This document shows positions 7,817-54,649 of a stretch of DNA of 64,000 nucleotides, in pieces. Source of the stretch: Nitrospirota bacterium (lineage in GTDB: Bacteria > Nitrospirota > UBA9217). The stretch is taken from positions 1,792,001 to 1,856,000 of the forward strand of contig OY760142.1 in the NCBI GenBank assembly GCA_963663225.1, in the 5' to 3' direction. A program made the translations under genes and the position numbers. How positions within the stretch are numbered: position 1 is the first letter of the stretch; each line of letters begins with the position of its first letter. The notes beneath the pieces were generated by a model. It did not search any database. It was not told the origin of the DNA and worked only from the letters and a program-made list of their open reading frames with translations.

Positions 7817-8977
7817 ATGAGTCTTGTGGGCAGACTGGAAGATCTCGCGCTGCCTGACATCTTCCAGATCATCAGTTTGAGCAAAAAAACCGGAACACTG
7901 ATCGCTCGAAGCCGCAGAGGGACGGGGATGGTTGTGTTCAAGGACGGCCAGGTGATCCAGGCCGCATCCGACAGCATCCGGGATTCCCTGGGCAATATTC
8001 TGGTATCGCAAGGCATGGTGACTGAGTCTGTCCTGGCAAAGGCGTTGGCGCTTCAGAAAACAGACGTCGACAAGCCGCTCGGCATGATCCTGGTTGAGAT
8101 GGGGGCGGTGTCGGCGCAGACGCTGGAGACGCTCATCCGCAAGCAAATCGAGGAAATTGTCTACGACCTGCTCGGCTGGGAAGAAGGTTTTTTTAATTTC
8201 GAGCTGGGCGAGATTGCTCCCAAGGACAAAATCGCGGTTGATACGCAGCAGTTTTTACTTCGGGCAGGAATCAGCGCTGAATATCTTCTTATGGAAGGGA
8301 CCCGGCTCATCGATGAACGGAGGAAGGATACGCCGGCTCCGGCGCCTGTTGCCCCTTCCGCTTCCAGACCTGCCTCTCCTCCGCCTCCGCAGCAAACCAA
8401 TTACGAACCGGCACGCGAGGAATTCCGGACCCGGATCGAACAGGAACAACCGTCGCAGGAAATCACCGCACTGAAATCCATGTTTGATGAACTGCGGTTT
8501 CCCACTGCCACGGCAGAAGTGACCCTGCTCATACTGCGGTACGCCAGTGAAGTGGTAAACCGCGCAATTCTTTTCATGGTCAAGAAGGACGAAGTGCGCG
8601 GTCTTGGCCAGTTCGGCATGGAGCTTGCGGGGCGTTCAGCTGACCAGGTCGTGCGCAGCATCAGGATTCCTCTGAACAAGCCTTCTCTCTTTTTAAAGGT
8701 CATAGAAAACCGCACCAGCTATGTCGGCCCTTTTGAAGCAAATGAAACGGGCAACTATCTCATGAATGAACTTGGCGGAGTAATGGCAGAGCAGGTGCTG
8801 GCCATACCCCTTATCGTGGACGGGAAGGTCGCACTGATCGTATACGGCGATAACGTGCCGGAGCGAAAGCCGATCAGGGGCGCGGATACACTCGAAATTT
8901 TCATGAACCAGGCGGGGATGGCCCTGGAAAAAGCGCTGCTGGCAAAAAGACTGGCCGAACTTCAGAAGGAGAAGTGA
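7817..8977 (+). CDS. DUF4388 (PATAN-like) protein with MshEN-like insert and C-terminal GAF-like domain
   Basis: MSLVGRLEDLALPDIFQIIS..KKTGTL start, WEEGFFNF motif, Pro-rich linker, C-terminal LAIPLIVDGKVALIVYGDN. Confidence 0.8.
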   Translation: MSLVGRLEDLALPDIFQIISLSKKTGTLIARSRRGTGMVVFKDGQVIQAASDSIRDSLGNILVSQGMVTESVLAKALALQKTDVDKPLGMILVEMGAVSAQTLETLIRKQIEEIVYDLLGWEEGFFNFELGEIAPKDKIAVDTQQFLLRAGISAEYLLMEGTRLIDERRKDTPAPAPVAPSASRPASPPPPQQTNYEPAREEFRTRIEQEQPSQEITALKSMFDELRFPTATAEVTLLILRYASEVVNRAILFMVKKDEVRGLGQFGMELAGRSADQVVRSIRIPLNKPSLFLKVIENRTSYVGPFEANETGNYLMNELGGVMAEQVLAIPLIVDGKVALIVYGDNVPERKPIRGADTLEIFMNQAGMALEKALLAKRLAELQKEK

Positions 8978-9354
8978 TGAAAAACGTCCTGCTTGTGGAG
9001 GATTCAAAGTCTATTCGGTCCATGATGCGGGTATCACTGGAAGAAGCAGGCAACTATTTTTTTGTGGAGGCCGGGAGCGGCTTCGAGGCCCTGAAAGCCC
9101 TCCCTTCGCGCCGCTTCGATCTTATCATCACCGATATCAATATGCCCGACATCAACGGTCTGGAGCTGATCGGGTACGTAAAATCCAATCCGACCTATCG
9201 TGACATTCCTCTTATCATCGTTAGCACTGAAAAAAGCGCGGAAGACAAAAAACGGGGCCTGGCACTCGGGGCCGCCGGTTATGTGGTAAAACCATTTACC
9301 AAGGAAGAGCTCAGACACATGGTGACGGCCGTCCTGAAAGAGACGCTCGCGTAA
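8974..9354 (+). CDS. cheY: Single-domain response regulator (CheY-like)
   Basis: LVEDS, TDINMP (phosphoacceptor Asp), VKPF; overlaps upstream stop. Confidence 0.9.
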   Translation: MMKNVLLVEDSKSIRSMMRVSLEEAGNYFFVEAGSGFEALKALPSRRFDLIITDINMPDINGLELIGYVKSNPTYRDIPLIIVSTEKSAEDKKRGLALGAAGYVVKPFTKEELRHMVTAVLKETLA

Positions 9355-9425
9355 GGCGCGTCTCGCCCGGGATGCACAAACAGTTTGTATCTTCTTGTAT
9401 CCCGCACTCGTAAAGGGGTGATCCC

Positions 9426-11435
9426 TTGAAACCAGACAAAAACCTGGAAGACTTTTTCGCCGAAGCGGAAGATATTCTGGCGTCAGCAAACCAGACACTG
9501 CTTTCAATCGAGACTGCCATGGATGAGGGCAGAACCGATCCCGATCTTGTCAATGCGCTGTTCCGTTCCGTCCATTCCTTTAAAGGGCTCGCGGGAATGT
9601 TCGAGCTGAAAGAACCGTCAACGCTTTCCCATAAACTGGAATTTTTTTTGGATGAGCTTCGTCTGGGCAAGACGAGACTGAACCGGGAAACATTCGACAC
9701 TCTTTCTGATACGCTCGCTCTGCTGAGGCGGCTGGTTCACCAGGCAGGCGCGGGGAAGGAGTCCGAGGATATTGCAGGGTTCCTCGGTCGCATTGATGGC
9801 GCCCTTGCGGTGAAAGTTTTTCCGGAGGCAGACCGGCCGCTGCAAGAAAAAATCAGCCTGGACGAGGGGATATTCCAGGTTTTGACCGAGTACGAAGAAC
9901 ACCGGTTGAAGGAGTGCGTCCGGGAACGCAAAAATCTGTTCGAGATCAAAGCGGCATTCCAGCTCAATGATTTTGAAGCGGGGATAAAGCAGCTTGCTGC
10001 AACGCTGAAAAAACATGGGGAAACCATCTGCACCCTGCCGACGGCGGGCGGGGACGGAGGGACCGGAATCGGCTTCACCATTGTTCTTGCCGCGACGGAA
10101 GACCGTGAATCGCTCGCAGCGGCACTTCCGCTGCCGAATGTAACGATCCAACAGATTGCCTATCGGGACGGACAAAAGATGGATGAGCAAAAGTCGGAAA
10201 CTGCCGCCCTGAAATCCATCAGCAATACGGTGCGGGTGGATATTTACAAACTCGACAATCTTATGAACATCGTGGGCGAGCTGCATCAAATCAAGAACAT
10301 TATGGGCAGGATTGCCAGGGAACTTCGGACCAAGGAAGGATTCATCAGCCACTCCGTGGATCTTCAGAAGGCGGAGCGCAGTCTGATACGGAAGCTGAAC
10401 GACCTTCAGTCCGGGATTCTTGAGGCCCGCATGGTCCCTATCGGCCAGATATTTACGCGCTTTTCCCAGGTGGTCAGGAAATACGCGAGAGATGCCGGCA
10501 AGGAAATCGACCTCCAGTTTTTCGGCGAGGAAACGCAGCTCGACAAACTCATGATTGAAGACCTTGCGGACCCGCTTATGCACCTCATCAGAAACGCCAT
10601 TGACCACGGCATTGAACCTCCGGATGTGCGGAGGAAGCGCGGAAAGCCGGAACAGGGAGTTGTAAAACTGACGGCGTTTCCCCGGGGAAACCAGGTTGTC
10701 ATCACGGTCGAGGACGACGGAGCGGGGATGGATCCGGAACGGATGCTGCGCACTGCCGTTGAAAAGGGGATGCTGAAACCGGATCATGGCCTTGTTCCCG
10801 AGCGAAACCACAAGGAAATTCTTGATCTGATTTTTCTTCCCGGTTTCACCACCCGCGAAACAGTAACGGAAATATCGGGGCGCGGTGTGGGCATGGATGT
10901 GGTAAAACGGAACGTTGCAAAACTTTCAGGGATCGTGGACATCTACAGTGAGTTGGAAAATGGAACGATTTTCACCCTGTTCCTCCCGATAACGCTTGCC
11001 ATCATTAAAGCACTTATCGTTGAATCGGGAGGCCAGATATTTGCCGTTCCCCTCACGTCCGTGGTCGAAATACTGCAGGTGGCGGCCCCCCAGATCGAAA
11101 CTGTGGAAGGGCAGGAAGTCATGGCTGTCAGGGAAAACACCGTGTCGCTCCTGCGGCTCGCCCGCACGTTCAATCTGCCTGAGGACCGGGAGCGCAGCGC
11201 ATTCTATGTGATTCTGGTGGGGCTGGCAGAACGGCGTCTCGGTATTATCGTTGAGGGCCTTCGGGACCAGCATGAAATCGTAATCAAGGCGCTCGGAAAG
11301 CGGTTCGCAGAAATGCAGGGGATCGCGGGGGCCACCGAACTGGGAGATCAGCGGGGCATGGTGCTTGTTCTCGATGTGGAATCACTGATAGAAGGATCGC
11401 TGAGAAAAACGGCGTCCGCCGGGCAGAAATTGTAA
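9426..11435 (+). CDS. cheA: Chemosensory histidine kinase CheA
   Basis: Hpt FRSVHSFKG, HLIRNAIDHGIE, DDGAG, SGRGVGMDVV, C-terminal CheW-like domain. Confidence 0.96.
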   Translation: MKPDKNLEDFFAEAEDILASANQTLLSIETAMDEGRTDPDLVNALFRSVHSFKGLAGMFELKEPSTLSHKLEFFLDELRLGKTRLNRETFDTLSDTLALLRRLVHQAGAGKESEDIAGFLGRIDGALAVKVFPEADRPLQEKISLDEGIFQVLTEYEEHRLKECVRERKNLFEIKAAFQLNDFEAGIKQLAATLKKHGETICTLPTAGGDGGTGIGFTIVLAATEDRESLAAALPLPNVTIQQIAYRDGQKMDEQKSETAALKSISNTVRVDIYKLDNLMNIVGELHQIKNIMGRIARELRTKEGFISHSVDLQKAERSLIRKLNDLQSGILEARMVPIGQIFTRFSQVVRKYARDAGKEIDLQFFGEETQLDKLMIEDLADPLMHLIRNAIDHGIEPPDVRRKRGKPEQGVVKLTAFPRGNQVVITVEDDGAGMDPERMLRTAVEKGMLKPDHGLVPERNHKEILDLIFLPGFTTRETVTEISGRGVGMDVVKRNVAKLSGIVDIYSELENGTIFTLFLPITLAIIKALIVESGGQIFAVPLTSVVEILQVAAPQIETVEGQEVMAVRENTVSLLRLARTFNLPEDRERSAFYVILVGLAERRLGIIVEGLRDQHEIVIKALGKRFAEMQGIAGATELGDQRGMVLVLDVESLIEGSLRKTASAGQKL

Positions 11436-11501
11436 AAACGAAAAACGTGTCGTCTGTGAATTCCGACAGCTTGCCGCAGAATGCCGTTTACCGGGGCTTT
11501 C

Positions 11502-12293
11502 ATGTATAAAGAGTTTTACGGATTGGCTGAAAAACCATTTAACAAAACGCCGGATCCGCGTTTTCTGTACCAGAGCAGAAAACATGCAGAGGCGCTGGCG
11601 CGGCTGCAGCATGCGGTTGAAGAGCAGGACATTGTGCTGCTCACCGGCGAAATCGGATCGGGCAAAACCACGCTTTCCCGCGCCCTGATCGATTCGCTGG
11701 ATGATTCCTGCCAGCCCGTGCTGATTGTGAACCCCTGCCTGTCGCCGCTGCAACTTCTGCAGACGGTCGCCCTCCGGCTCGGCATACAGGGTGCGGGACG
11801 GTACCGGAACGACATCCTTGAGGGAATCAATGCGAAGCTCTATGAACTGTACGAAACAGGCAGGCAGCCCGTAATCATTATTGACGAATCGCAGCTTATC
11901 CCGGGCAAGGCAACCTTCGAGGAACTCAGGTTGCTGACGAACTTTCAGCTTGACGATCGGAATCTTACGGCACTCATCCTGATCGGACAGACTGAATTGC
12001 GAAAACGCCTGGAGCGCAGCCCATACCGGGCGCTTCGGCAGAGAATCAGCATGCAGTATCATCTCGGACCGCTTGATCAGGAAGAAACAGCCGCATATGT
12101 TCGCCACCGGCTGAAAATCGCGGGCAGGGAACAGCCGCTGTTCAGCGAGGAGGCGCTTGCGCTTCTGTGCAGACATTCGGAGGGCATTCCCCGTCTGATC
12201 AACATTATTGCCGGGAACGCACTCATTGAGGGTTTCGGCAGAGGGTCTGAACACATCGGACCCGAGATCATAGAAAGCGTTGTGATGGAATAA
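11502..12293 (+). CDS. ExeA/GspA-like AAA ATPase, ATPase domain only
   Basis: MYKEFYGLAEKPF..TPDPRFLY start, GEIGSGKT Walker A, IIIDE Walker B, LILIGQ, GIPRLIN. Confidence 0.9.
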   Translation: MYKEFYGLAEKPFNKTPDPRFLYQSRKHAEALARLQHAVEEQDIVLLTGEIGSGKTTLSRALIDSLDDSCQPVLIVNPCLSPLQLLQTVALRLGIQGAGRYRNDILEGINAKLYELYETGRQPVIIIDESQLIPGKATFEELRLLTNFQLDDRNLTALILIGQTELRKRLERSPYRALRQRISMQYHLGPLDQEETAAYVRHRLKIAGREQPLFSEEALALLCRHSEGIPRLINIIAGNALIEGFGRGSEHIGPEIIESVVME

Positions 12294-12347
12294 AGGAAAA
12301 GCGAGGAGCGCCGGACCGGGACATCAGCGGCGCCGGAGCTGAGCTGT

Positions 12348-13007
12348 ATGGACATATTGAAAGCAAGAAAAAAAGCCGCCGAACAAAAGCGAAGCCGGAA
12401 AAAAACGGAACCGGAGCCTGCCGCCGAACCTCAGCGGCCGCAGGAAGAAACAGCCTATCCCGCTGAGCCGCGGGCAGACTCTCACCCGGTTGCCGACAAA
12501 AACGCGGGTCTTCCCGGCATGTCAGAACCGGCTGCAGAAGCTCCCGTGGAAGAACCAGCCTCGTCCGACTCCAAGGGAGAAGAGGCACAGGAAGAGATCG
12601 ATCTCCTTTCATTCCGTTTGGGCGGGGAGTCATACGCGCTGCTGGTAAAAGACGTTCGGGAAGTGCTGAAAGTCCGTTCTCTGACGCCGGTGCCGAATGC
12701 GCCTTCGTATATTATTGGCGTGACCGGGCTCAGAGGCGCAGTGTTGCCGGTGATCGACCTCTGCGCGCGGTTCGGTCTTGTTCCCGGTGTGCGGGATGAA
12801 AAATCCAGAATCATCGTCGTGGGCTCCTCTGAGGAAGACGTGGGACTTGTCGTGGATCGGGTAACGGGGGTTCTGAGAATCATGCCCGACGAAATCAGGC
12901 CAACGCCTGAACACGTCGAGCAGGGAGCGGCATTCCTGCGCGGGATCGTCCGAAAAGACGAAAAATTGTACATTCTTCTGGACCTCGAAAAGGCGGTTGC
13001 AGCATGA
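12348..13007 (+). CDS. cheW: CheW with acidic/Pro-rich N-terminal extension
   Basis: TPVPNAPSYIIGVTGLRGAVLPVIDL; GLVVDRV. Confidence 0.92.
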   Translation: MDILKARKKAAEQKRSRKKTEPEPAAEPQRPQEETAYPAEPRADSHPVADKNAGLPGMSEPAAEAPVEEPASSDSKGEEAQEEIDLLSFRLGGESYALLVKDVREVLKVRSLTPVPNAPSYIIGVTGLRGAVLPVIDLCARFGLVPGVRDEKSRIIVVGSSEEDVGLVVDRVTGVLRIMPDEIRPTPEHVEQGAAFLRGIVRKDEKLYILLDLEKAVAA

Positions 13008-13135
13008 CCTGCGGAGAAGTCCGGACAACTGAATACCAGCGGCTGCATGATTGCAGCGGAAAACAACACAGGGAAGAAAAAGCGGCCTGTCAATCTTAAT
13101 TCACAAGGAGCGAACGCGGGAGCGAAGGTGAGCCT

Positions 13136-15226
13136 ATGAAAACATTAATTGACATGAATTTAAAGACACGCGCGGTGCTGCTGACGGCGGGAATCCTCCT
13201 GCTCGTTCTGGTGTTTAACACCCTGGTCAATATTACTGCGGCTACGAACAAGTACCGGGAGGCCCTGATCGCGCGGGCCACCGCGCTTGCAGAAGAGATT
13301 CGAAAAGATGTGTCAAAGGCGACGGCAGACGGCACTTCGTTGAGTGAGTTGGAAGAGATGGGAGCGCGGTTGCGACTGCTGATTGCCGAGGACCATGACC
13401 TCGCGGGTGCCAGGGTGTTGGATGCGAACGGAAGAGTGCTGTATGCCAGCGACCAGACGCCTGAAAACACGGTGCCGGGAGACGCAGCGAACAAGAAAGC
13501 GCTCGCGGCAAACGCTCCTCAATTGGAATATTACACAGACAACGCCGGAGGACGGTATGAAAAAATCATTCCTTTGAACGGTCCTGACGGGAAAAAAATC
13601 GGAGTGTTTGTGATAGCGATCAAGGAGGATGCGGTAAAGCGCCCGGCAGAAAGCATGCTTCTGCGGTCGCTGCTTGTCGGATTCATCAGTTTTGTGATTG
13701 CCATGGCCCTGATGTATTATTTTGCCAACCGGGGGATGCTGCCCATCGTCGAGATGGCAAAAAGCGCCAGCAAGATGGCGGCCGGCGACCTTTCGAGCAC
13801 CATTGAGGTCAAGGGCAAAACAGAGGTGACCAACCTGGTCAACGCAATCAATACGATGTCGGCGAACCTCAAAGAGATGCTCAGAAAGATCAGAGTGACC
13901 TGCGTTGGTTTGAACGATGCCATGAACCTGGTGAGCGGCGCCGCGCGCAAAATGAGCAAAGGCGCGCAGACCCAGCAGGAGGCGACCGATCAGGCAGCAA
14001 AGGTCGTGAATGAAATGGTCGCGTCCATCCGCGAGGTTGCCGGGGGAACTGATGAAATGTCCCACGCGGCCATGAACGCCTCGTCGTCCGCATCGGAAAT
14101 GGCGTCGTCCATAGAAGAAGTCGCACGGAACACCGGAACGCTAGCCGCGGCGGTTGAAGAGACGGCCTCCTCCGTCGGGCAGATGATCGCCTCCATCAAA
14201 CAAGTGTCGGAAAATACAGACGCAGTCGCCGCGTCCGCCGAACAGACATCATCCGCCATTACCCAGATGAGCGTTTCGGTGAGAGAGATCGAGCAGCGTG
14301 CGCGGGATTCCGCGCGACTGGCGGCAAAGGTGTCGCAGGATGCCTCGGAGCGGGGCATGGTCGCCGCCGCGGAGGCAATCAAAGGCATGCAGCATATCAA
14401 GGAAGCCGTGGAAGCCACTGCTTCCGTGCTGAACCGTCTCGGAACGCGTTCGCAGGAAATCGGCCAGATTCTGAAGGTCATTGACGACGTGACCGACCAG
14501 ACGAGCCTGCTGGCCCTGAATGCCGCCATTCTGGCCGCGCAGGCAGGAGACCGCGGCAGGGGATTTGCCGTCGTGGCTGATGAAATCAAAGACCTGGCGG
14601 AGCGCACCGCGTCATCCACTCAGGAGATCGCCGGACTTATTGCCTCGGTGCAGGAGGAAGCCGCCGAGAGCGTCCATGCCATGGACAAAGGGCTCAAGGC
14701 CGTGGAGGCGGGTTTTTCCCTGGTGAATGTGACCAGTGAAGTTCTGCAGCAGGTCGCGGACAGTTCGCGGCAGTCAACGGAGACCGCCCGAGCAATTGAA
14801 AAAACCACCGCAGAGCAGGCAAAGAGCGTATCGCAGATTACGGAATCCTCGGTGGGGATTGCGGGGCAGCTCGACCAGATTGCCCGCGCGTTGCAGGAAC
14901 AGCGCGCAGGAAGCGAACGGATAGCGCAGGCCGCGGAGCGCATGCGTGAAGTCACCCGCCAGGTGAAAATAGCCACGCAGGAACAGACTACGGGCGGCAG
15001 GCAGATCGCCGACGCGGTGGAATCAGTGACGGCCCAGGCCGGGCAGATTGCCCGCACGACGGCGGAGCAGAACACGGGGACCCAGCAGATAAACGAAACC
15101 ATCAACCGCATCCAGGGTATAACCCGGGACAGCATGGATGTGTCCATTGAGATGGAAATGGCCGTGCAGGTGATCAAGGAAAAGGTGGTTGCGCTTCAAG
15201 CCGAGTTGGATGGTTTTAAATATTAA
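13136..15226 (+). CDS. Methyl-accepting chemotaxis protein (2TM, HAMP, long signalling domain)
   Basis: Hairpin tip [30 protein letters not shown]; two TM helices; HAMP. Confidence 0.95.
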
Positions 15227-15365
15227 TCAGAGAACAGCGGATGCGGGACGGCCTGGCTGCGCGCAGGCGGGCCGGATACAGTCAATCTGACGCGGTGTTT
15301 CCTGCGACCATGGTTTTTTACCGCTCCGGCACCAGACCGCAGAAGGGTATTTCAAGGGAGGCCCT

Positions 15366-18161
15366 GTGAATATCGGCTTACGACAGAGACTGATTGTTTT
15401 AATTTTCTCCGGGCTTGTAGTGGCCATGGCAGCGATCGGAGTGTACCGGTACTTCATGGAGAAACAGGTCATTCTGAACATGACCCGCGCGGAGGGAGAG
15501 CGCTCCTGCAAACTCATGGCAGATATTGCCGTGCCGTATCTGCAGACATCGGATATTCATGGCCTGCTTGCTGTTACGCAAAAATTTTTGCGCACACCCG
15601 ATATTCTGGAAATTACCGTTCGGGACAAGGAAGGACGGCGTCTCGCGTATGTCACCAAGCAGGCCGTTCCGAACAACGCCATTACTGTCGGACCGGTTCC
15701 GGTTCTGTTCGATACAACGAAGCTCGGCGAGGTCAGCATGTCGGTTTACCCGGAGAAGATGGGAGACAGGCTCAAAGTATATGCTCTCAGCGCGTTGGTC
15801 GAAAACTTTTTCATCTTTGTGGTCCTGGCGGGCATTCTGGCGGTATTCATAACCCGCTCTATCACGAAACCGGTGAAGGAGCTTCGCAATGCCGTAAAAG
15901 AGCTGATCGACCAGAAAGATTTCACCCGGCGAGTAAAGGCGCACGGCCGTGACGAAATCGGGGAGCTTGCAACCGGAATAAATTACCTTATCGAGCGACT
16001 GGAGCAATTCATCGTCGAGATGAGCGATATCTCCGCGCGGATCAGCACGGTGAGCCCGGAACTGGTCCGGGAGGCGGGCGAAGCGAAAAAAAACGCGGAA
16101 GGCGCGGCCGAAGCCATCGCAGATGTTTCTTCTTCGGTTGAGGCGATGTCCGCGTCCCTGCAGTCCTTCTCGGAGACCGCGGAGAGTCTTTCCGCTTCGG
16201 CGGAAGAATCGTCATCCGCCATTCTGGAAATGAATGCGTCGAACCAGGAAGTTGCCGGCCACACGAACGAGCTTACCGCGTCCGTGGAAGACGTGACCGC
16301 GTCGGTGGCGGAAATGATTGCATCCATCCGTGAGGTCGGCGGCCACGTGGAGAGCCTCACCGCGGCGGCGGAACAGACGTCCGCCTCGGCAGTCGAAATC
16401 GAAGCCACGGTCCGTGAGGTCGAAGGGGCGGCGAAAGAGTCGTCATCGCTGTCCCAGCTTGTTTCCCGTGAAGCACAGGAAATCGGCGTCAAATCCATCC
16501 GGGAAACGGGAAAAGCCATCGACACGATCAAGGACGCCGTCAACCGCTATTCCGGTCTGGTGGCAAAGCTTGGACAGCGTTCAGTCGAAATCGGAAAAAT
16601 ACTGAACGTCATCGTGGAAGTGACGGAAAAAACAAACCTGCTTGCGTTGAATGCTTCCATTCTCGCGGCACAGGCGGGCGAACACGGCAGAGGGTTCAGC
16701 GTGGTGGCCGAAGAAATTAAGGCTCTTGCCGACCGCACGGCGGTTTCCGCGCAGGACATTGCAAAGCTCATTGCCGCGGTACAGAAGGAAGCCAAAGAGG
16801 CCGTGGCGGCAATGGCGGACAGCCTTGCGGCGGTAGAAGAAGGGGTGCAGCGATCCCGGGCGGCCGGTGCGGCATTGGACAAAATCCTGGCGACGTCCAC
16901 GCAATCCTCCGAAATGACAGCCATGATTGAGCGCGCAATGAACGAACAGGCGCGGGGAATCAAGCAGGTAAGTGAAGCCATCGCGAATGTAAAGCAGATG
17001 TCGGCGCAGATCATGGCCGCGACGCAGGCCCAGAGCAAGGGCACGGAGATGATACTCCAGAGCGCGGAGAGCATGCGGGACATCGCGCGTCATGTACGGA
17101 GCGCCATGGCCGAACAGACGCGCGGCGGAAAGCAGATCGCCGCCGCAGCTGAAAGCGTGACGGCGCATGCCGGGTCCATTGCGGCAGGCACCTGGGAACA
17201 GCGCCAGTCAGTGGCCAAAATCCAGGAATCCGTCAAAAAGATTCAGGACCTTCCCCGCCAGAGCGCTCGCCGTGTGGAAAGCATGGCAGCCTCCGTTGAG
17301 ACCCTGGGAGAGCAGGCAGCTCTGCTGAACCGGGAAATCGTCACCATGACGGTCCGGCGCGGGCGCCGATACATCGAAGGCGGCGCCTTGAAGATGGGCA
17401 TTGTTCCTCTCGACAACCCCGCAGAGATGCTTCGCCGTTTTACGCCGGTTGCGGAATATCTCTCCCGTACTCTCGCCAGAAAAGTGGAACTCTCCGTTGC
17501 CATGGACTTTGCACAAATGCTGACCGACCTTGAAGAGGATAAGATCGATTTGGCGTTTCTTACGCCTTCCCTGTATATCGAAGCGCAGAAAAAGGCAGGA
17601 GTGTCCCTGCTCGTCAAGGCGCTGCAAAACGGGGTCCCTTACACCCACGCGGCCATTGTTGCCCATGCCGACCGTCCCCTTGCCCGACTGGAGGACATCA
17701 AGGGAAAACGGTTCGCGTTCGGCAGCAGAAAGTCGACATTGACCCATCTGGTTCCCCGCGCCATGCTCGCTGAAGCGGGCGTCGGCCTCAGCGATATGCG
17801 AGAATTCGCCTTCCTCGGCCAGCAGGAAGCCATAGCAAAAGCCATCATTGCCGGAGAATACGATGCCGGCGGCATGTCCGAATCCACGGCAAAAATGTTT
17901 GAGGACCGGGGGCTGATAATTCTGAAGACCTCCATTGATGTCCCGGAAAAAAACATCTGCATTTCCAGACATCTGGATAAAAATACCAGCGATCTAATTA
18001 AGCAGGCGCTGCTGGCCCTGAACCGTGGACAAGAGGCGCACGCGACGATTCTGGGCAGCATAAATCCGAATTACTCCGGGTTTGAACCGGCGAGCGATGA
18101 AGAATATGACGGTGTCAGAAGGCTGCTTGCTAAGATACAGGAAACGGACACACAAGACTAA
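15366..18161 (+). CDS. MCP fused to a C-terminal PhnD/PtxB-like substrate-binding domain
   Basis: [30 protein letters not shown] tip; from aa ~675 [50 protein letters not shown]. Confidence 0.9.
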
Positions 18162-18241
18162 CGACTGCTGCAGCCCCCCGCACGGCACGGTGGTACCGGA
18201 TCCGGGGAACAGAATTTTTTGCAGCATCAGAGGCAAGGACC

Positions 18242-18775
18242 GTGAGACGTACTTTGGCCAGAGATAAAAAACCAGTGGTTACGGACGACGCCATGCAGGT
18301 TGTGACCTTTCAGATAGGCGTCGAGGAGTATGGACTCGATATCCAGTTCATAACCGAGATCATCCGTCCGCTCAAGATCACGCCGCTTCCCCATATGCCG
18401 GAATTCGTCGAAGGGGTGATCAATCTCCGGGGGACCGTCATTCCCATCATTGATTTGCGGAAACGTTTTTTGCCGGGCGCGGCTGTCCCGAACCCAAAGA
18501 CCATGCGCATGGTCATTCTCCGGGGTGCCGTCCCCGCCTTGTCGGGGACAGCCAGAGACCTGGTCGGATTTATTGTGGATGCGGCGAAGGAAGTCCTCAG
18601 CATACCGCGCAAGGACATCGATTCAGCGCCACCGCGCGCGGTTGGTCGTGATGTCGAATTCATTGCCGGGATGGGCAAGGTAGGCGGCCGTCTCATTGTA
18701 CTTCTCGACAGCAGCAAGATTCTGAGCCAGCAGGAAGGGTCAGCCCTGGCGGAGGTCGGAAATGCCGGATATTGA
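18242..18775 (+). CDS. cheW: CheW
   Basis: ITPLPHMPEFVEGVINLRGTVIPIIDLRKRF. Confidence 0.93.
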   Translation: MRRTLARDKKPVVTDDAMQVVTFQIGVEEYGLDIQFITEIIRPLKITPLPHMPEFVEGVINLRGTVIPIIDLRKRFLPGAAVPNPKTMRMVILRGAVPALSGTARDLVGFIVDAAKEVLSIPRKDIDSAPPRAVGRDVEFIAGMGKVGGRLIVLLDSSKILSQQEGSALAEVGNAGY

Positions 18776-20753
18776 ACGGCTTGGTGAAAAACTCGCGAGC
18801 AGGAACGTTGAAGAGCGGCGTGAGGCAACCGTGGAGCTTGGCCGAGGGGGACAGTCTGCGGTTTCCCTGCTCTTTCGCGCCATGGCGGACGTTGACTGGC
18901 GGGTGAGGAAGACCGCGGTCGAAGCCATCGTATCGATCGGCGGTGAAAACGTTGTAAACAGGCTGCTCCGGTCCCTGAGTGCTCAGGACAATGCGGGAAC
19001 GCGGAATTCCGCCATTGAGGCCCTTGTCCAGATCGGAAAACCGGCGGTCCCCGCACTGTTCCCCATGCTGGAAACCCCCGATGCCGACGTCCGCAAGTTT
19101 GTCGTTGACATCCTCGGCGATATCGCCGATCCTCGCTCGCTGCAGGCCCTGGTGGAAAAACTTGACGATGCGGATGAAAATATCCGGGTGGCTGCCGCGG
19201 AAGCTCTCGGCAAGCTGCGCGACCCGCGGGCTGTAGACGCACTGCTTGCCTGTCTTGGCCGTTCAGATCAGGGCTGGCTGGACTATGCCGCGGCGGAGGC
19301 GCTGGGGTCGATCGGCGATGAACGCGCGCTCGAACCGCTGCTGGCTGCCCTGAACCGGCCGGGTCTCCGGGAGCCGGTCATCGGGTCGCTCGGCAGGGTC
19401 GGCAATGTGCATACCCTTGCCCCCCTGATCGCCGGCCTTGCCGATTCCCTCCGGATTGTTCGCGAGGCGTCGTGCATGGCGCTTGCCGCAATTGCAGAAA
19501 AGAGCAGCGAGCAGGAGCAACAGACCGTACGGGAAACCGTGCGCAGCGCCATGAGCGGACAGGCAGCGGACTTTCTGGAGGAGATGCTCGCCACAAGCAC
19601 GGGCGGTCTTCAGAAAGCGGTGATCTCCCTTCTTGGCTGGGGCGGGAAGGAGAGTTCGATTCGCAGGCTGCTGTCGCTGCTGACGGAGGAGGAATTTGAA
19701 GAACCGGTGGCACAGTCGCTCCGGTTCCTTGAGAGAAACCAGGCGCCTTTGTTGTTCGATCATCTCGCCAGTGCGAATGCGCTGGTACGGCGTACTGTTG
19801 CGCGTGTTTTGGGAGATATCCGCAGTCTCGAAGCTGAGATGCCGCTGCTCAACCTGCTGCAGGATGAAAACGGCCATGTGCGAAGCGCCGCGGCGCTTGC
19901 GCTCGGACGGATTCAAAGCAGGCGTGCGGTCAAACCGCTGCTCGAACTGCTGATGGATGAATACGAAAGCGTGCAGGAGTCGGCGATCCACGCGCTGGCC
20001 GCCGTCGGCGATGAGTCCCTGCTGGACGAACTGACTCGGGACTTTTCAACACGGGACACTCTTTTACGCAGAAACATCGTCCTTCTTCTCGGCAGGTTTA
20101 CCGCGGACAAGGCCGTGACGGCCCTGTCTTTTGCACTGAAGGATGAAAATCCGGAGGTAAGAAAAGCGGCAGTCCATGCGCTCGGCAGCGTATCCACCGG
20201 GCAGGCTTTCAAGTCGCTCCTGTTTGCGGCCACGGACGATGATCCTGAGGTAAGGATGCTGGCGGCAGAGGCTCTTGCAGGACTGAACGCGCATGGGGCT
20301 TTTCCCGCGCTTGTTTCCCTTCTTGAAGATACCGATCTTTGGGTCCGGGCTGCTGCGGCCCGCGGACTGTGCCGGATCGGCAACGAACTGGCGGGCGAAA
20401 TCCTTCTTGCGCATTTAAAAAACGCGACAGATGTTTTTCTGTTTGCCATTGTGGAGTCGCTGGGAAAACTGAAGGTGCCCGCGGCCCGGGAACCGCTTCT
20501 TGCTCTTATCGGTCACCCGGACCCGGAGGTGCGAAGGACCGCGCTGGCGGCCCTTTCCGGCTACCGGGGGCCCGCCGTGCGGGAGGCAGTTCAGTCCTGT
20601 CTGACGGATGCTCACTGGATCGTCAGAAAGGCGGCCGTCGAAGCACTGAAGCAGGAGCAGGATTCGGTCCTTGAATCCGTCTTTGAGAAAATCGCCCTCA
20701 ACGATCCGGATGCGACCGTCCGCCAGGCGGCGAAAGAGGCATTGAAACGATAA
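18762..20753 (+). CDS. HEAT (PBS lyase-like) repeat protein
   Basis: About 20 tandem ~31 aa repeats of the type L.D....VR..AA.ALG. Confidence 0.92.
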   Translation: MPDIERLGEKLASRNVEERREATVELGRGGQSAVSLLFRAMADVDWRVRKTAVEAIVSIGGENVVNRLLRSLSAQDNAGTRNSAIEALVQIGKPAVPALFPMLETPDADVRKFVVDILGDIADPRSLQALVEKLDDADENIRVAAAEALGKLRDPRAVDALLACLGRSDQGWLDYAAAEALGSIGDERALEPLLAALNRPGLREPVIGSLGRVGNVHTLAPLIAGLADSLRIVREASCMALAAIAEKSSEQEQQTVRETVRSAMSGQAADFLEEMLATSTGGLQKAVISLLGWGGKESSIRRLLSLLTEEEFEEPVAQSLRFLERNQAPLLFDHLASANALVRRTVARVLGDIRSLEAEMPLLNLLQDENGHVRSAAALALGRIQSRRAVKPLLELLMDEYESVQESAIHALAAVGDESLLDELTRDFSTRDTLLRRNIVLLLGRFTADKAVTALSFALKDENPEVRKAAVHALGSVSTGQAFKSLLFAATDDDPEVRMLAAEALAGLNAHGAFPALVSLLEDTDLWVRAAAARGLCRIGNELAGEILLAHLKNATDVFLFAIVESLGKLKVPAAREPLLALIGHPDPEVRRTALAALSGYRGPAVREAVQSCLTDAHWIVRKAAVEALKQEQDSVLESVFEKIALNDPDATVRQAAKEALKR

Positions 20754-21614
20754 ATGTTTGAAGAGCAGAACATTCCGCTGCCGGATGATGTGTTCAGGCT
20801 TCTCCGGGATTTCGTCCATGCCTATTGCGGGATTTTTTTCGATGACAGCTCCAAGTTTCTGCTGCAGCGCCGTCTCGTGCGACGCCTTGAGCAGCATCGG
20901 CTCAAGAGCTTTGAAGAATACTACCATTTCCTCCGTTACGACCGGAAACGGGAGGAGGAACTTTCCGTCCTTATTGACAGCCTCACCACCAACGAAACCT
21001 ATTTTTTCCGGGAGAGTGCGCAGTTGCGGGCGTTTTCCGAAGAAATTCTGCCGGAATTGCGGCAAACGTTCGCTGATCGAAAGACCCTTCGGATATGGAG
21101 CGCCGGCTGTTCCACGGGAGAAGAGCCGTATACCATCGCCATCCTTCTGCTGGAATCAGGCGACTGGTGGCGCGACTGGCAGGTTGAAATTCTCGGTAGC
21201 GACATCAATCAGCGGGTGTTGCACGCGGCGCGCAGAGGCGTCTATAAAAAGAGCGCGCACCGGGTGACGAGCCCGGAAATGCTTGCGAAATATTTTACGG
21301 AGGAGAACGGCGACTACCGTATCATCGACGCCGTCAGGGACCTGGTGTCCTTCAGCTCGGTGAACCTGCTGGATCCGGGCAAAATCAGCCTGATCGGCAC
21401 GATGGATGTCATTTTCTGCCGGAATGTGATCATCTATTTTGACAAGGAAGCGAAAAAAAAAGTGATCGAAACGTTTTCCCGAAAGCTCAGAGAAGGAGGA
21501 TATCTCCTGCTGGGACATTCAGAATCGCTCATTAATATTTCGAACGCCTTCGAGCTCAGGACGCTCAAGCACGACATGGTCTACCGGAAACCGCTGCGTG
21601 CGAAAATGGGATGA
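20754..21614 (+). CDS. cheR: Chemoreceptor methyltransferase CheR
   Basis: TTNETYFFRE, RIWSAGCSTGEEPYTIA, DVIFCRNVIIYF, LGHSES. Confidence 0.96.
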   Translation: MFEEQNIPLPDDVFRLLRDFVHAYCGIFFDDSSKFLLQRRLVRRLEQHRLKSFEEYYHFLRYDRKREEELSVLIDSLTTNETYFFRESAQLRAFSEEILPELRQTFADRKTLRIWSAGCSTGEEPYTIAILLLESGDWWRDWQVEILGSDINQRVLHAARRGVYKKSAHRVTSPEMLAKYFTEENGDYRIIDAVRDLVSFSSVNLLDPGKISLIGTMDVIFCRNVIIYFDKEAKKKVIETFSRKLREGGYLLLGHSESLINISNAFELRTLKHDMVYRKPLRAKMG

Positions 21615-21680
21615 GCAACAACAGCGACAGCGGCCTCCGGGAAGTTTTGCGGACTCAGTCGCGGCGCGCGTGACAGGATT

Positions 21681-22763
21681 ATGAAGAAGATAACAGTATT
21701 GGTTGTTGATGATTCGGCCTACAACAGAACCGTCATTGCCCAGATGCTCGAGCAGGACCCCGGGATCACCGTCGTCGGGAGCGCCGTGGACGGTGTTGAT
21801 GCCATCGCGAAGACGCTCCGCCTCAGGCCCGATGTCATCACGCTTGATCTTGAAATGCCGGATATGGACGGCTTTTCATTTCTGCGATGGCTTATGAAAG
21901 AGCGGCCGACGCCCGTGCTCGTGCTTTCAGCGCGCTCCGACAGCCGAAGCGTGTTCCGCGCCCTGGAACTCGGCGCAGTCGACTTTCTGGCAAAACCGGA
22001 AGCGCGCATTTCCCGAAGCATAGAAAAAATCAAGGACGACCTTGTGGCCAGGGTGCATGCGGTGCTGAATCTTGAAATGACCAAAGTGAAGTCCGCGATC
22101 AGCCTTCTGTCCCGGGAGCAGGCGCCCCCGTCAGTCAGAAAAGAAGACGAGAAGAGGCGGGAACCGGGGCCGATTGAAGTTGTTGCCATCGCTGCATCCA
22201 CCGGAGGTCCGCCGGCGCTTCAGGCGATTCTCACCGCGCTTCCTTCAGATTTCAATGCCGGCATTGTGATCACCCAGCATATGCCCGCAGGTTTTACGAA
22301 AAGTTTCGCAGAGCGCCTGAACAAAATATCCTCTCTTGTCGTGAGCGAGGCCACGGACGGCGACCGGGTTGATCCGGGCACGGCGCTGATTGCGCCGGGC
22401 GGGCACCATCTCCTGCTGAAAAGAGACCAGGACGGACTGCGGGCGGAGATTGTTCCTCCCGACCCTTCAGACAAACACGTGCCTTCTGCGGACCGCATGA
22501 TGGCGTCTGTTGCCGATGTTTGCGGGACCGCAACGCTCGGGGTCGTTTTGACCGGCATGGGCCGGGACGGTGCGGAAGGGGTGATTGCCATCAAGAACCG
22601 GCAGGGACAATGCCTGGCCGAAAGCGAGGAAAGCGCCGTTATTTTCGGCATGCCTCAGGAAGCCATCCATACCGGAGCGGTTGACAAGGTGCTGCCGCTT
22701 GACAGAATTGCGGACGAGATCCAGAGACGGTGCAAATCAGGGAAAAACCAGATGCTGGAATGA
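21681..22763 (+). CDS. cheB: Chemoreceptor methylesterase CheB (REC + esterase)
   Basis: TLDLEMP receiver; ASTGGP, QHMP and LTGMGRDG catalytic motifs. Confidence 0.96.
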   Translation: MKKITVLVVDDSAYNRTVIAQMLEQDPGITVVGSAVDGVDAIAKTLRLRPDVITLDLEMPDMDGFSFLRWLMKERPTPVLVLSARSDSRSVFRALELGAVDFLAKPEARISRSIEKIKDDLVARVHAVLNLEMTKVKSAISLLSREQAPPSVRKEDEKRREPGPIEVVAIAASTGGPPALQAILTALPSDFNAGIVITQHMPAGFTKSFAERLNKISSLVVSEATDGDRVDPGTALIAPGGHHLLLKRDQDGLRAEIVPPDPSDKHVPSADRMMASVADVCGTATLGVVLTGMGRDGAEGVIAIKNRQGQCLAESEESAVIFGMPQEAIHTGAVDKVLPLDRIADEIQRRCKSGKNQMLE

Positions 22764-23000
22764 AACAATGATCCCTGTGGGGCTTGGCCGCGTATATATA
22801 TGATAATGTTCAGAAGTCCGCAGCAGTGTTTATCCGTTTTTTGTTGCTCTTTATTGAAAATTCAACTATTATCAATACTTGAAATATTTATTCTGTACGA
22901 CTAAAGAAACAAACTGTTCTGCCGATAATAACTTGGTATAGGTTTTTTCGGATACCATGACAGACGCAGGATCCTGAGACAGCGTCTTCAGGAGGGCTTG

Positions 23001-23825
23001 ATGGAGAAGGAACCCGCATCAATTTCCAAAAAAGTTGAAGAGTTTCTCCAGGTTTTCAAAAAAGGTGAAGAGTTCACCCATGAACTGCTTAAGGAGAATG
23101 AGAAGCTCCGGTACCGGGTCGCCCAGCTTGAGGAGGTGACCAAGTTTTCCGGCAGGGAAGGCGACCTCAGGCTGAACACGCTGGAGGAGAAGATACGGTT
23201 CCTGGAAGAGGAAAACAAAAGCCTTCTTACCCGTTACCGCGTTGTGGAAGAGGAAAACAAGGATTTCGCGAACCGCTATATAGAGGTTGAAGCCGAGAAC
23301 AACAATCTTGCCAACCTGTATGTGGCAAGCTATCAGCTCCACTCCACGCTCGATTTCGGCGAATCGCTTAAGATCATTCTTGAAATCGTCATGAACCTGA
23401 TCGGCGCCGAAGAGTTTTCGATCATGATGCTGGACGAAAAAACAAATGAACTGACGATCGTGGCCCAGGAAGGCATGAGCTCCGAGGCGCGTCCGGCCAT
23501 CAAGCTGGGCGAGGGAATCATCGGCTCGTCCGCGAAAGCCGGCGAGTCATTCTACCGTGAAGGAGATCCCACGAACGTGACGGGTGTGGACTATTTGCAT
23601 CCGCTTGTTTGCATCCCTCTCAAGATCAAAGAGCATGTCATCGGCGTGATTGTAGTTTACAAGCTCCTGGTGCAGAAGCAGGCATTTACTGGCGTGGATT
23701 ACGAGCTTTTCACCATGCTTGCCGGCCATGCCGCCACGGCCCTATTTTCTTCCAAACTGTATTCGCAGTCCGAACGGAAGCTCACGACGATCCAGAGCTT
23801 TCTCGATCTGCTGAAAGAAAAATAA
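23001..23825 (+). CDS. Coiled-coil + GAF domain protein
   Basis: N-terminal heptad coiled coil; NLANLYVASYQLHSTLD; GEGIIG..CIPLK GAF core; AGGAGG RBS. Confidence 0.85.
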   Translation: MEKEPASISKKVEEFLQVFKKGEEFTHELLKENEKLRYRVAQLEEVTKFSGREGDLRLNTLEEKIRFLEEENKSLLTRYRVVEEENKDFANRYIEVEAENNNLANLYVASYQLHSTLDFGESLKIILEIVMNLIGAEEFSIMMLDEKTNELTIVAQEGMSSEARPAIKLGEGIIGSSAKAGESFYREGDPTNVTGVDYLHPLVCIPLKIKEHVIGVIVVYKLLVQKQAFTGVDYELFTMLAGHAATALFSSKLYSQSERKLTTIQSFLDLLKEK

Positions 23826-23837
23826 CGGAGGTTTGAA

Positions 23838-24218
23838 ATGCCCGAGCACAATTTCCTGGTGGTGGAAGATTCCCCTACAATGCGGCAGCTGATCTCCTTT
23901 GCGCTGAAGCGCATTCCCGGCAGCAAGATCGTCGAAGCGAATGACGGCATCGACGCATTGAAAAAGCTCTCAACCCAGAAATTCGACGTCATTCTGACGG
24001 ACATCAATATGCCGATCATGGACGGGCTGAAGCTCGTTTCCATGGTGCGGAACGATCCGGCGCACAAAACAATCCCCATCATTATTATCACGACGGAAGG
24101 CGCGGACGAGGACCGCAAGCGCGGTCTTGCACTGGGCGCAAACGCCTACATTGCCAAGCCGATCCAGACTGCGGACCTTCTGAACACGGTCAGCCAGATT
24201 TTGGGCGGCAAAGGATAA
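23838..24218 (+). CDS. cheY: Single-domain response regulator (CheY-like)
   Basis: VVEDS, TDINMP, AKPI; paralog of 8974-9354. Confidence 0.9.
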   Translation: MPEHNFLVVEDSPTMRQLISFALKRIPGSKIVEANDGIDALKKLSTQKFDVILTDINMPIMDGLKLVSMVRNDPAHKTIPIIIITTEGADEDRKRGLALGANAYIAKPIQTADLLNTVSQILGGKG

Positions 24219-39653: not shown

Positions 39654-40346
39654 ATGAAAAAAGCAAAAATCCTTGTCGTTGAAGATGAAAGAAATATTTC
39701 GGATATTGTAAAAGCATATCTTGAGCGGGAGGGATTTGAAGTGGTTGTTGCGGCCACCGGAAAAGCAGCGCTCAAGGAGGCCGGAAAAAATGTTGATCTC
39801 ATCGTCCTGGATCTTAAACTCCCCGACATTGACGGTGAGATCGTCTGCAAATCAATCAGGGAGTTTCTTGACGTCCCGGTGATCATGCTTACCGCAAAAA
39901 GCGCCGAGGATGACCGGGTCAGGGGGCTGGGCCTGGGTGCGGACGATTATGTGGTAAAACCGTTCAGCGCACGGGAACTGGTCGCGCGGGTAAAAGCTCA
40001 TGTACGACGCGCGCGGATCGGAGAAAAAAAGGAGCTTTCCTTTGAAGGAAGGGCCCTTGTTATCAACACCCAGGCACATGCCGTCCAAAAAAATGGTAAA
40101 GATGTCGATCTGACGAACACCGAGTTCAGGATTCTCCTGAGCCTTGCGGAGAAGCCGGATGTCGCGTTTTCCCGCCTGCAGCTGATTACGAACGCGCAGG
40201 GATATGATTTTGAAGGCTTTGATCGGGTCGTGGATGCGCATATCAAGAACATCAGGCACAAGATTGAAGACGACCCCGCCTCACCATCCTTTATCAAGAC
40301 CATGTACGGCGTAGGATACAAATTCATAGGCAGGCCTGACAAATGA
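39654..40346 (+). CDS. OmpR-family response regulator
   Basis: VLDLKLP, MLTAK, GADDYVVKPF, RVVDAHIKNIRHK, YGVGYKF. Confidence 0.95.
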   Translation: MKKAKILVVEDERNISDIVKAYLEREGFEVVVAATGKAALKEAGKNVDLIVLDLKLPDIDGEIVCKSIREFLDVPVIMLTAKSAEDDRVRGLGLGADDYVVKPFSARELVARVKAHVRRARIGEKKELSFEGRALVINTQAHAVQKNGKDVDLTNTEFRILLSLAEKPDVAFSRLQLITNAQGYDFEGFDRVVDAHIKNIRHKIEDDPASPSFIKTMYGVGYKFIGRPDK

Positions 40347-41704: not shown

Positions 41705-41871
41705 AACCGGAGCTGTAATAGCAAAAAAACCGCTGTTTTCTGCTTGACGCAATACATCAGTTCATACCTCATCCACCGGGCAGTGCCCTTCACAAATACT
41801 CCGATATAATGTGCATTTTTCGTTGTTGCTGAATCTATCCCTGTGGCAGGGAAATCCTCCAATTTTTATTA

Positions 41872-41906
41872 TTCTTCATAATTTCTTCACCATGGTGTGG
41901 CATACT
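41872..41906 (+). promoter_or_regulatory. OmpR-type direct-repeat activator site plus -10 element
   Basis: TTCTTCA-N4-TTCTTCA (11 bp period), then 11 nt, then CATACT. Confidence 0.6.
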
Positions 41907-41957
41907 TTCATCAATAAACATCGCAAGTATCTCAAATATTTCTGAGGAGGCGGGAGT

Positions 41958-42347
41958 ATGAAAAAAACACTGACAATAGTACTAGCATTGTTTCTTATGG
42001 CAGGCGCAGCGTCAGCCGGAGGTTATGAGGTCTCAAAGAAGGCGGGTGAATATAATGTTGCTGTTGTCCTTGACCGGAACCCGCCGGTCGCAGGAAACAA
42101 CGAAATCAACCTTGTTATTAAGGATGCAGCAGGCAACGTTGTCCGGGACGCACAGGTGAAAATTGAATATTCCATGCCGGCCATGCCCGGTATGCCGCCC
42201 ATGCGCCATAAAACCAGCGCGACCCTGCAGGGGGATTCCTACAAGGCTGTCATGACATTCTGCATGGGCGGAGCATGGACAATCGAGATCAAAATCGCCC
42301 GGGCCGGCAAAACGTCTCAGATGAAGTTCATGGTGGACGCTTCGTAA
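41958..42347 (+). CDS. YtkA/FixH-like exported Met-rich protein, copy 1
   Basis: Signal peptide; NPPVAG.N, EYSMPAMPGMP, M.G.W. Confidence 0.8.
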   Translation: MKKTLTIVLALFLMAGAASAGGYEVSKKAGEYNVAVVLDRNPPVAGNNEINLVIKDAAGNVVRDAQVKIEYSMPAMPGMPPMRHKTSATLQGDSYKAVMTFCMGGAWTIEIKIARAGKTSQMKFMVDAS

Positions 42348-42393
42348 GAGGGTTTGCAGGGTGTCCCGTTACTGAAAGGGATTTAAAATCGCA

Positions 42394-42428
42394 TCATTCA
42401 CTAACTCTTCAAAATTGTGTGATATCCT
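42394..42428 (+). promoter_or_regulatory. Second copy of the direct-repeat promoter
   Basis: TTCA-N7-TTCA, then 11 nt, then TATCCT; same spacing as 41872-41906. Confidence 0.5.
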
Positions 42429-42493
42429 TAGTCTTAAGAAACACAAAAACGGCATATGACATGCCCGGTTAATCTTATCGGAAGGAGAAGAAT

Positions 42494-42883: not shown

Positions 42884-42890
42884 GCGGACT

Positions 42891-45390: not shown

Positions 45391-45496
45391 AACCGAACGC
45401 ACGGTGTTGCGCGGGAGCAAGAACGCATCTCCCGAAGTTTTTTCAGGCCGCTGGTACTGAGGAACATCCAGCGTATATGCTGAGGAATATGATGGT

Positions 45497-54641: not shown

Positions 54642-54649
54642 ATGTTACC

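Follow-up and report, generated by a model that had tools for sequence, protein, structure and literature searches.

Introduction

The Azospirillum brasilense chemoreceptor Tlp1/Aer has a C-terminal PilZ domain that binds cyclic di-GMP, and this binding tunes the sensitivity of Tlp1 (PMC13401364); the Desulfovibrio vulgaris chemoreceptor DcrH has a C-terminal hemerythrin sensor (PMC3604760). Here we describe a receptor of similar layout, encoded at positions 15366..18161 (+ strand) of a 64,000-nucleotide stretch of Nitrospirota DNA (GenBank assembly GCA_963663225.1, contig OY760142.1, positions 1,792,001 to 1,856,000; this whole stretch is called the window below, and all coordinates refer to it). 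As far as those accounts describe the two receptors, DcrH, Tlp1 and the window receptor are all transmembrane methyl-accepting chemotaxis proteins (MCPs) with a periplasmic region, a HAMP domain and an extra cytoplasmic sensor after the signalling hairpin. The window receptor differs from the other two in fold and ligand class, in that its C-terminal module has the two-lobed fold of a binding protein. With its sensor domain following the signalling domain in one polypeptide, as seen both by Pfam and in the structural model below, it belongs among the chemoreceptors with a C-terminal ligand-binding domain (LBD).

This arrangement, MCPsignal followed by PF12974, is in print with the same Pfam domains in the same order. 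The legend to Fig. 8 of Russell et al. (2013, mBio, PMC3604760) names Phosphonate_bd among the C-terminal domains of chemoreceptors, and Ortega & Krell (2020, PMC7390727; supplementary file 1 and section 6 of the main text) have Pf12974 among at least 17 types of C-terminal LBD, a group described there as "poorly characterized". Both papers see such domains as probable extra sensory inputs, and both catalogues are Pfam-derived lists without ligand, structure, phenotype, genomic context or evolutionary analysis. An earlier note on this DNA, made from its letters alone, knew of no characterised example. That statement holds for function, since our literature searches found no functional study of the MCPsignal plus Phosphonate-bd architecture, but the architecture itself had already been catalogued. 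To our knowledge, the PilZ, hemerythrin and CZB types are the only C-terminal chemoreceptor sensors with experimental support.

PtxB (PDB 5O2J, 5JVB, 5LV1; PMC5700983), the closest solved relative of the window module by sequence and fold, is the phosphite binder of a transporter of the ATP-binding cassette (ABC) type, whereas the receptor domain is cytoplasmic, fused, and without a signal peptide or transporter genes nearby. The periplasmic PhnD-like proteins AioX, ArrX and XAC2383 belong to the same fold family as the receptor domain and act in signalling, not transport; their ligands are varied (arsenite, arsenate and, in crystals, ATP or chloride), and they feed signalling proteins (the AioX-AioS pair is among those listed in Matilla 2021, PMC8050422). 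These are separate secreted proteins on the periplasmic side of a partner sensor, whereas the receptor domain is cytoplasmic and lies on the output end of the receptor. The window receptor is thus a further case of a catalogued yet uncharacterised design that is common in its phylum; what is new here is its fixed place in a conserved pathway, the existence of natural orthologs with and without the domain, the affinity of the domain to PtxB, and the clade-specific rebuilding of its pocket. With moderate confidence, we take the gene to encode a functional 64-heptad transmembrane chemoreceptor with an accessory cytoplasmic domain that would sense small anions and modulate the receptor.

Results

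Architecture and membrane topology of the receptor

The receptor gene starts with a GTG codon a few bases 3' of an AGGGAGG ribosome-binding site and encodes 931 amino acids in one continuous frame, which comprise a first transmembrane segment (TM1), a periplasmic domain, a second transmembrane segment (TM2), HAMP, a signalling hairpin of 64-heptad (64H) length, a linker and a PtxB-like domain. Kyte-Doolittle hydropathy in 19-residue windows rises above the threshold of 1.5 only at about residues 3-31 and 136-170, giving two membrane segments. This profile and a full-length AlphaFold model (60 homologs; mean predicted local distance difference test, pLDDT, 75.9) place TM1 at about residues 8-28, a small periplasmic alpha/beta domain at about 30-135 and TM2 at about 140-166 (15366..15875, + strand). 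The periplasmic part of the model consists of a long N-terminal helix, a short helix and then four strands (80-127), and residues 29-138 of the window protein have no Pfam match. HAMP occupies residues 161-214 (15846..16007, + strand; Pfam, 47 bits against a cut-off of 25), and the hairpin residues 215-659 (16008..17342, + strand), as located by Pfam, the model and alignment with the MCP of 696 amino acids encoded next to it (MCP696). Within the hairpin MCPsignal covers residues 401-545 (139.7 bits, Pfam cut-off 34.6), the tip reads GEHGRGF (G441) and is invariant across 60 aligned sequences, and the C-terminal arm is 442-659. The model accordingly has a helix at 197-436, a turn at 437-441, a helix at 442-659, a linker at 660-674 and the binding domain at 675-930. 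Given its MCPsignal score, its TM-sensor-TM-HAMP topology and the CheA, CheW, CheR and CheB genes nearby, the protein is recognisable as an MCP.

The distance from the end of HAMP to the tip is 227 residues (32.4 heptads) in the receptor and the same 227 in MCP696, which stops 222 residues past its own tip and aligns almost without gaps with the receptor to residue 658. Both proteins are of the 64-heptad length, an assignment made by length and not by the class-specific heptad hidden Markov models of Alexander & Zhulin; this class is termed 64H, or 40+24H in Geobacter papers (PMC3543383, PMC8235581).

After the hairpin comes a flexible basic linker (residues 660-674; 17343..17387, + strand), in which pLDDT falls below 50 at 665-669 and within or just past which the shortened orthologs described below end. 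It contains the RRGRR sequence (664-668). Position 17388 is the first base of the codon for residue 675, where both the full-length and the domain model have the first beta-strand of the binding domain, so that the domain comprises residues 675-931 (17388..18161, + strand). The hydropathy maximum past residue 215 is 1.07, and there is neither a third transmembrane segment nor an internal signal peptide. Because no transmembrane segment follows the hairpin, the domain is predicted to be on the cytoplasmic side, beside HAMP and about 15 residues past the membrane-proximal end of the hairpin, a placement with which the hairpin alignment and the model agree. The layout of the receptor, the short linker, the start of the binding domain and its membrane-proximal cytoplasmic position had all been proposed in the earlier note, and the frame map, Pfam, hydropathy and the model bear them out.

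The C-terminal domain is related to PtxB

Residues 677-914 match the whole Phosphonate-bd profile (PF12974, positions 1-242 of 242; 190.3 bits, E 4.7e-56, cut-off 27), and a model of the domain (46 sequences; pLDDT 90.9, predicted TM-score 0.85) shows the two-lobed class II fold, which together place it in the Phosphonate-bd superfamily. Among the NCBIfam profiles it barely passes TIGR01098, the phosphate/phosphite/phosphonate binding-protein subfamily (113.5-114.3 bits, cut-off 112.05), and it stays far from the cut-off of the PhnD equivalog TIGR03431 (117-120 bits, cut-off 261.1). Foldseek returned PtxB structures first (E ~4e-26, TM-score 0.74-0.78), then ArrX, HtxB, AioX, PhnD and XAC2383, with TM-scores of 0.73-0.84 over the top matches as a whole. 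By sequence the best solved relative is Pseudomonas stutzeri PtxB (E 2.8e-28 with the window domain, 5e-50 with the family profile). A two-copy complex prediction for a domain homodimer scored 0.00, which is no answer and evidence neither way.

The domain does not have the secretion signal or periplasmic location of a transporter component of the PhnD or PtxB type, as it follows a cytoplasmic hairpin. No ABC permease or ATPase gene lies beside it, since all the genes at 7817-24218 are chemosensory; the PhnC and PhnE families were not searched genome-wide.

The family profile was also run against 1.84 billion representative sequences and gave 14,523 matches at E<=0.001, 1,137 of them at E<=1e-30. 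At the top stand long proteins whose C-terminal part is the domain; from about E 1e-78 down come ordinary binding proteins (270-300 amino acids, with the domain starting at residue 20-40). Among the best 150 matches, the 40 that were at least 450 amino acids long and not yet typed were scanned by Pfam; 29 have Phosphonate-bd after MCPsignal, and the other 11 are binding proteins doubled in tandem. The PtxB-like receptor type makes up at least 33 representative clusters (50% identity) among those best 150.

The domain behind different N-termini

At least five N-terminal arrangements are found ahead of MCPsignal and the domain: a small periplasmic domain as in the window protein (matched by Pfam Mcp40H-20_sensor in P0071), 4HB_MCP_1 (L071), Cache_3-Cache_2 (P0097), sCache_3_2 (P0107), and a two-helix membrane hairpin with no periplasmic domain, as in the Pelosinus-type proteins of 639 amino acids and a 636-amino-acid form from the phylum. 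In the last of these, two-TM receptors without a periplasmic domain, the C-terminal domain is the sole candidate sensor. The pocket of these short forms is nearer the PtxB/PhnD type, with two Tyr and the His kept, an S-A-S-G loop and an Asp at the cap position, where the published description of E. coli PhnD also has an Asp (D205; Bisson et al. 2017, PMC5700983). As judged by this pattern of occurrence, the domain would be a self-contained input module.

Orthologs that lack the domain

The gene cluster that contains the receptor also encodes a GAF protein, for which 116 of the 301 genomes sampled from the phylum have a match at E<=1e-40, including 63/63 of the window's taxonomic family, and which served as a marker for the locus. 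Twelve loci were fetched around this marker from genomes without a strong domain match; two of them were truncated by the end of a contig. Wherever a locus extends to the receptor genes, these encode MCPs of 64H length in stop-to-stop open frames of 681-865 amino acids, and the domain was matched in none of the twelve. Four of these proteins (in G127, G215, G069 and G170) are orthologs of the window receptor, 62-65% identical to it over residues 1-665/672, and they end 10-20 residues past the bundle (one reads ...LVTMTVRK... before the stop). G127 and G215 have no domain match anywhere in the genome, so the domain is absent there and not split off as a separate gene.

A tree of the N-terminal 665 columns was built with quick IQ-TREE and tested with the Shimodaira-Hasegawa-like approximate likelihood ratio test (SH-aLRT). 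Its 39 rows are 31 of the 83 long database matches (spanning the identity range), the window protein, the four domain-less forms and three outgroup MCPs. Within the fused clade the domain-less forms branch off at two separate points, and the well-supported branches require no fewer than two changes. When the tree is rooted on the MCP696 group, the fused state comes out as ancestral for the receptor and the domain as lost at least twice.

Where the receptor lacks the domain, HEAT, CheR, CheB, CheW and GAF are present and the cluster is otherwise unchanged. That the domain was lost more than once while receptor and cluster otherwise stayed intact argues for an accessory, needed for neither array assembly nor adaptation. 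Among the GAF-marker loci no cluster gene co-varies with the presence of the domain, which argues against a dedicated protein partner within the cluster.

We also considered that CheR, CheB or the HEAT protein might dock on the domain and down-weighted this, as those genes are unchanged in the clusters of domain-less receptors.

Conservation and remodelling of the pocket

The published description of Trichodesmium PtxB (Te_PtxB) gives Y55, Y100, S130, T131, S132 and H160 as ligand residues and Y208 and D22 as caps (Bisson 2017, PMC5700983). We mapped these eight positions by an HMMER alignment and a 143-sequence alignment, so that the pocket is defined by alignment to PtxB and not by model coordinates. 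The family majority has Leu at D22, Phe at Y55, Thr, Gln or His followed by a conserved His at Y100, Ser, Thr and Ser at S130, T131 and S132, His at H160, and Phe at Y208. Compared with PtxB as so described, the family thus keeps four of the eight (S, T, S and H) together with an aromatic Phe cap, and in place of both Tyr hydroxyl donors and of the Tyr-Asp cap stand Phe, Thr/His, Phe and Leu. The family-majority motifs FAFGDxxSTSS, GHHD and PEFN are very PtxB-like, and FxxGDxxSTSS and GxHD are shared by the family consensus and PtxB itself.

At the same positions the window protein has L682 (D22), F715 (Y55), T760 and H761 (Y100), S790 (S130), T791 (T131), L792 (S132), Q820 (H160) and K862 (Y208), so that Leu, Gln and Lys are substituted in addition to the family's changes; T793 and Q819 complete the S790-T791-L792-T793 loop and the Q819-Q820 pair. 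The window protein and its four closest relatives, which are 87-98% identical in the aligned C-terminal region, read SxxSTLTH, GQQE and PEKN, and these remodelled motifs are identical in all five sequences, down to 87% identity. The changes are Ser to Leu, His-His to Gln-Gln, the Phe cap to Lys, and Asp to Ser. The S-T-L-T loop pointed out in the earlier note is therefore present as read, but it is a peculiarity of the window's clade, and the family consensus is S-T-S-S as in PtxB. The suggestion in the same note that the ligand is possibly not a phosphonate agrees with this mapping, by which the pocket is unlike that of phosphonate and phosphite binders.

The pocket is thus largely conserved in the family and rebuilt near the window protein, but is the domain a ligand-binding input? 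Outside one well-supported clade of the N-terminal tree, within which all the relatives at 55-66% identity lie, the mean pairwise identity (n=114) is 0.84 at the eight pocket positions and 0.57 in the rest of the domain; inside that clade (n=20) the values are 0.53 and 0.62. A shift as large was found in 6 of 10,000 random sets of eight positions, a frequency that overstates the significance because related sequences are not independent. Three observations together argue for a ligand-binding input: most of the family strongly conserves the positions that contact the ligand in PtxB, the domain has spread as a module, and in the short forms it is the sole candidate sensor.

A number of points weigh against this. 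In some genomes the domain is evidently dispensable for the receptor to work. The window protein keeps just two of the eight ligand or cap residues described for PtxB (S790 and T791), and the relatives at 55-66% identity show many different pockets, which could reflect relaxed constraint on the pocket rather than a new specificity. The contrast between clades was noticed in the pocket table before it was counted (the delimitation of the clade comes from the N-terminal tree of 665 residues, not from the domain), and the kinship of the sequences inflates the shuffle result as said above. The linker is predicted to be flexible, so there is no evident direct mechanical path from the domain to the bundle.

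Several of these points would equally fit a domain that works without a ligand, serving on the inner side of the membrane for docking, spacing or the packing of arrays, with the fold kept only as a scaffold, for instance through contacts with neighbouring receptors, lipid head groups or a soluble partner. A flexible linker, a pocket that varies within the window's clade in an otherwise conserved domain, and at least two losses of the domain without loss of receptor or cluster are all as expected of such a module. However, a mere scaffold has no need for the PtxB-contact positions to be the most conserved part of the domain, as they are outside the clade; HEAT, CheR, CheB, CheW and GAF are all present alongside receptors without the domain, none of them co-varying with it; and in the two-TM receptors with no other sensor the domain is the only possible input. 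We regard a ligand-independent role as rather unlikely, and keep to the reading of the domain as an accessory ligand-binding input.

A second alternative is that in the window's genus the domain is a decaying relic that has lost its pocket and whose deletion is under way, as in sister lineages. The two of eight residues kept and the domain-less orthologs in the same taxonomic family would fit this. Against it, the ratio of nonsynonymous to synonymous substitution rates (dN/dS) of the domain is 0.07, 0.089 and 0.10 in three within-genus comparisons, the same as in the bundle (0.05-0.10), by which measure the domain is under purifying selection within the genus; the remodelled pocket is identical in 5/5 sequences of the clade; and the domain model is confident (above). 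A collapsed or unconserved pocket, which the earlier note had named among the findings that would count against its reading, is accordingly not what the clade shows, and we give the relic explanation little credence.

Distribution of the fusion

Each of the 95 database matches to residues 600-931 has PF00015 as well as PF12974, with a length of 880-980 amino acids in 83 of the proteins, so the domain-architecture check proposed in the earlier note came out in favour of the fusion. Relatives are labelled Nitrospiraceae or Nitrospirota, the close ones uncultured Nitrospiraceae. Of the 301 sampled genomes of the phylum, 160 match the domain at E<=1e-10. By hand count, 81 of the best 89 matches lie in open frames of at least 818 amino acids, in 74 genomes of many families; the other eight of the best 89 are three short frames (432, 426 and 488 amino acids, at least one of them cut by a contig end), four of about 640-655 and one of 315. 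The frame is open for 660-709 amino acids upstream of the domain in 20/20 long loci. The genome from which the window comes consists of one 3.26-Mb contig, and the domain is matched there only once. An assembly error or lost stop that joined an MCP gene to a binding-protein gene has practically no chance of being the explanation, given a continuous frame in 74 of 301 genomes, in every database match and in every one of those long loci, a single contig around the window, and relatives that have either the fusion or no domain and never two separate genes, the other outcome that the earlier note had named as counting against it.

Outside the phylum the spread is indicated by a few source names and by weak leads from the ESM Atlas, whose best scores (0.76-0.78) are below a meaningful level; it named Bacillota clusters with MCPsignal plus Phosphonate-bd, a lead that was then verified by Pfam on P0094, P0088 and L068.

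Some variant genes were seen in the same searches. In L024 (genome G254) the frame is open for only 159 amino acids upstream of the domain although the locus continues, and G179, G188 and G021 each have one in-frame stop in the domain match; these interrupted orthologous receptor genes may be pseudogenes or sequencing errors. In L070 (G006:C77), an open frame of 809 amino acids with an uncertain start codon, Phosphonate-bd at 558-790 is the sole Pfam domain. Many proteins in genomes of the phylum have two Phosphonate-bd domains in tandem and a length of about 540-630 amino acids (L065, L067, L069; P0104, P0111, P0120 and others), L065 and L067 with hydrophobic N-termini that suggest secretion, and PhnD-like matches reach at least eight per genome in the phylum.

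The chemosensory gene cluster and other features of the window

The receptor gene lies in a chemosensory cluster whose genes are all on the + strand and were identified by Pfam. In order these are DUF4388 (7817-8977), CheY (8974-9354), CheA (9426-11435), an AAA_22 ATPase of 270 amino acids (11481-12293; 81 bits), CheW (12348-13007), MCP696 (13136-15226; of 64H length by alignment and without the C-terminal domain), the receptor, a downstream CheW (18242-18775), a HEAT-repeat protein (18762-20753), CheR (20754-21614), CheB (21681-22763), the GAF protein (22998-23825) and a receiver (23838-24218). The upstream genes from DUF4388 to AAA_22 keep their order in relatives, the genes downstream of the receptor are conserved there too, and the cluster is shared by part of the phylum. 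Among 22 long loci of relatives, which were picked through their domain match, HEAT, CheR and CheB adjoin the receptor in 19 and CheA does so in 17, and in one (L049) the receptor stands alone.

An antisense open frame of 290 amino acids (11382-12254, - strand) masks the AAA_22 gene in a longest-frame map; the + frame of AAA_22 is 52-62% identical across the phylum, versus 25-35% for the antisense frame. By annotation alone, the CheA-ATPase-CheW order resembles that of GSU2222/GSU2221/GSU2220 in the account of Chan et al. (2017). MCP696 ends ...ELDGFKY right after the bundle, which is reminiscent of aromatic C-terminal tether pentapeptides, and its periplasmic part has only a weak dCache_1 match.

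Elsewhere in the window, 34776-37007 (+ strand) encodes a protein of 743 amino acids made almost entirely of ankyrin repeats and is followed by OmpA-like and TPR lipoprotein genes. The + strand at 39654-48715 holds an OmpR-type two-component pair, two YtkA-like genes and an OEP/HlyD_D23/AcrB efflux system, and this set looks like a metal-efflux island. At 52446-60005 (- strand) two paralogous HAMP-GGDEF-EAL proteins (731 and 738 amino acids) flank a TonB-dependent receptor and an ABC_sub_bind protein.

Discussion

The above observations establish a chemoreceptor in which a PtxB-like domain follows the signalling hairpin, and we propose that it reads two inputs. The small periplasmic sensor would be the first, and the complete cytoplasmic Venus-flytrap domain would be a second, accessory input that tunes the receptor, analogous to PilZ in Tlp1 and hemerythrin in DcrH. 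The domain derives from PtxB-like periplasmic oxyanion-binding proteins and would bind a small cytoplasmic ligand; in the ancestral form this was probably an oxyanion of small size. By opening or closing, the domain could bias how the membrane-proximal bundle, or neighbouring receptors, are packed. With a rebuilt pocket in the window's clade, the putative ligand of the window protein is probably not the ancestral one, and probably neither phosphite nor phosphonate.

More broadly, and more tentatively, a Venus-flytrap fold may have been recruited as a cytoplasmic input by which this phylum and the short-form Bacillota steer according to an internal oxyanion or metabolite pool, with the pocket re-specified for a different ligand in the window's clade. 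If so, taxis would depend on metabolism, as read through a pocket of PtxB type. The question is directly testable, thanks to the clade with a rebuilt pocket and to orthologs that naturally either have or lack the domain; if the proposal is true, those orthologs would be a ready-made experiment on how a C-terminal module talks to a signalling bundle.

Receptors of this type are numerous, being present in 74 of the 301 genomes sampled, and to judge from source names, databases usually mislabel them as a transporter component. Should a cytoplasmic ligand indeed bind to the domain, this would illustrate how the fold of a periplasmic transport protein became an internal sensor, and it would provide a handle on the stimulus of a HEAT/GAF/DUF4388-type pathway in mostly uncultured anaerobes.

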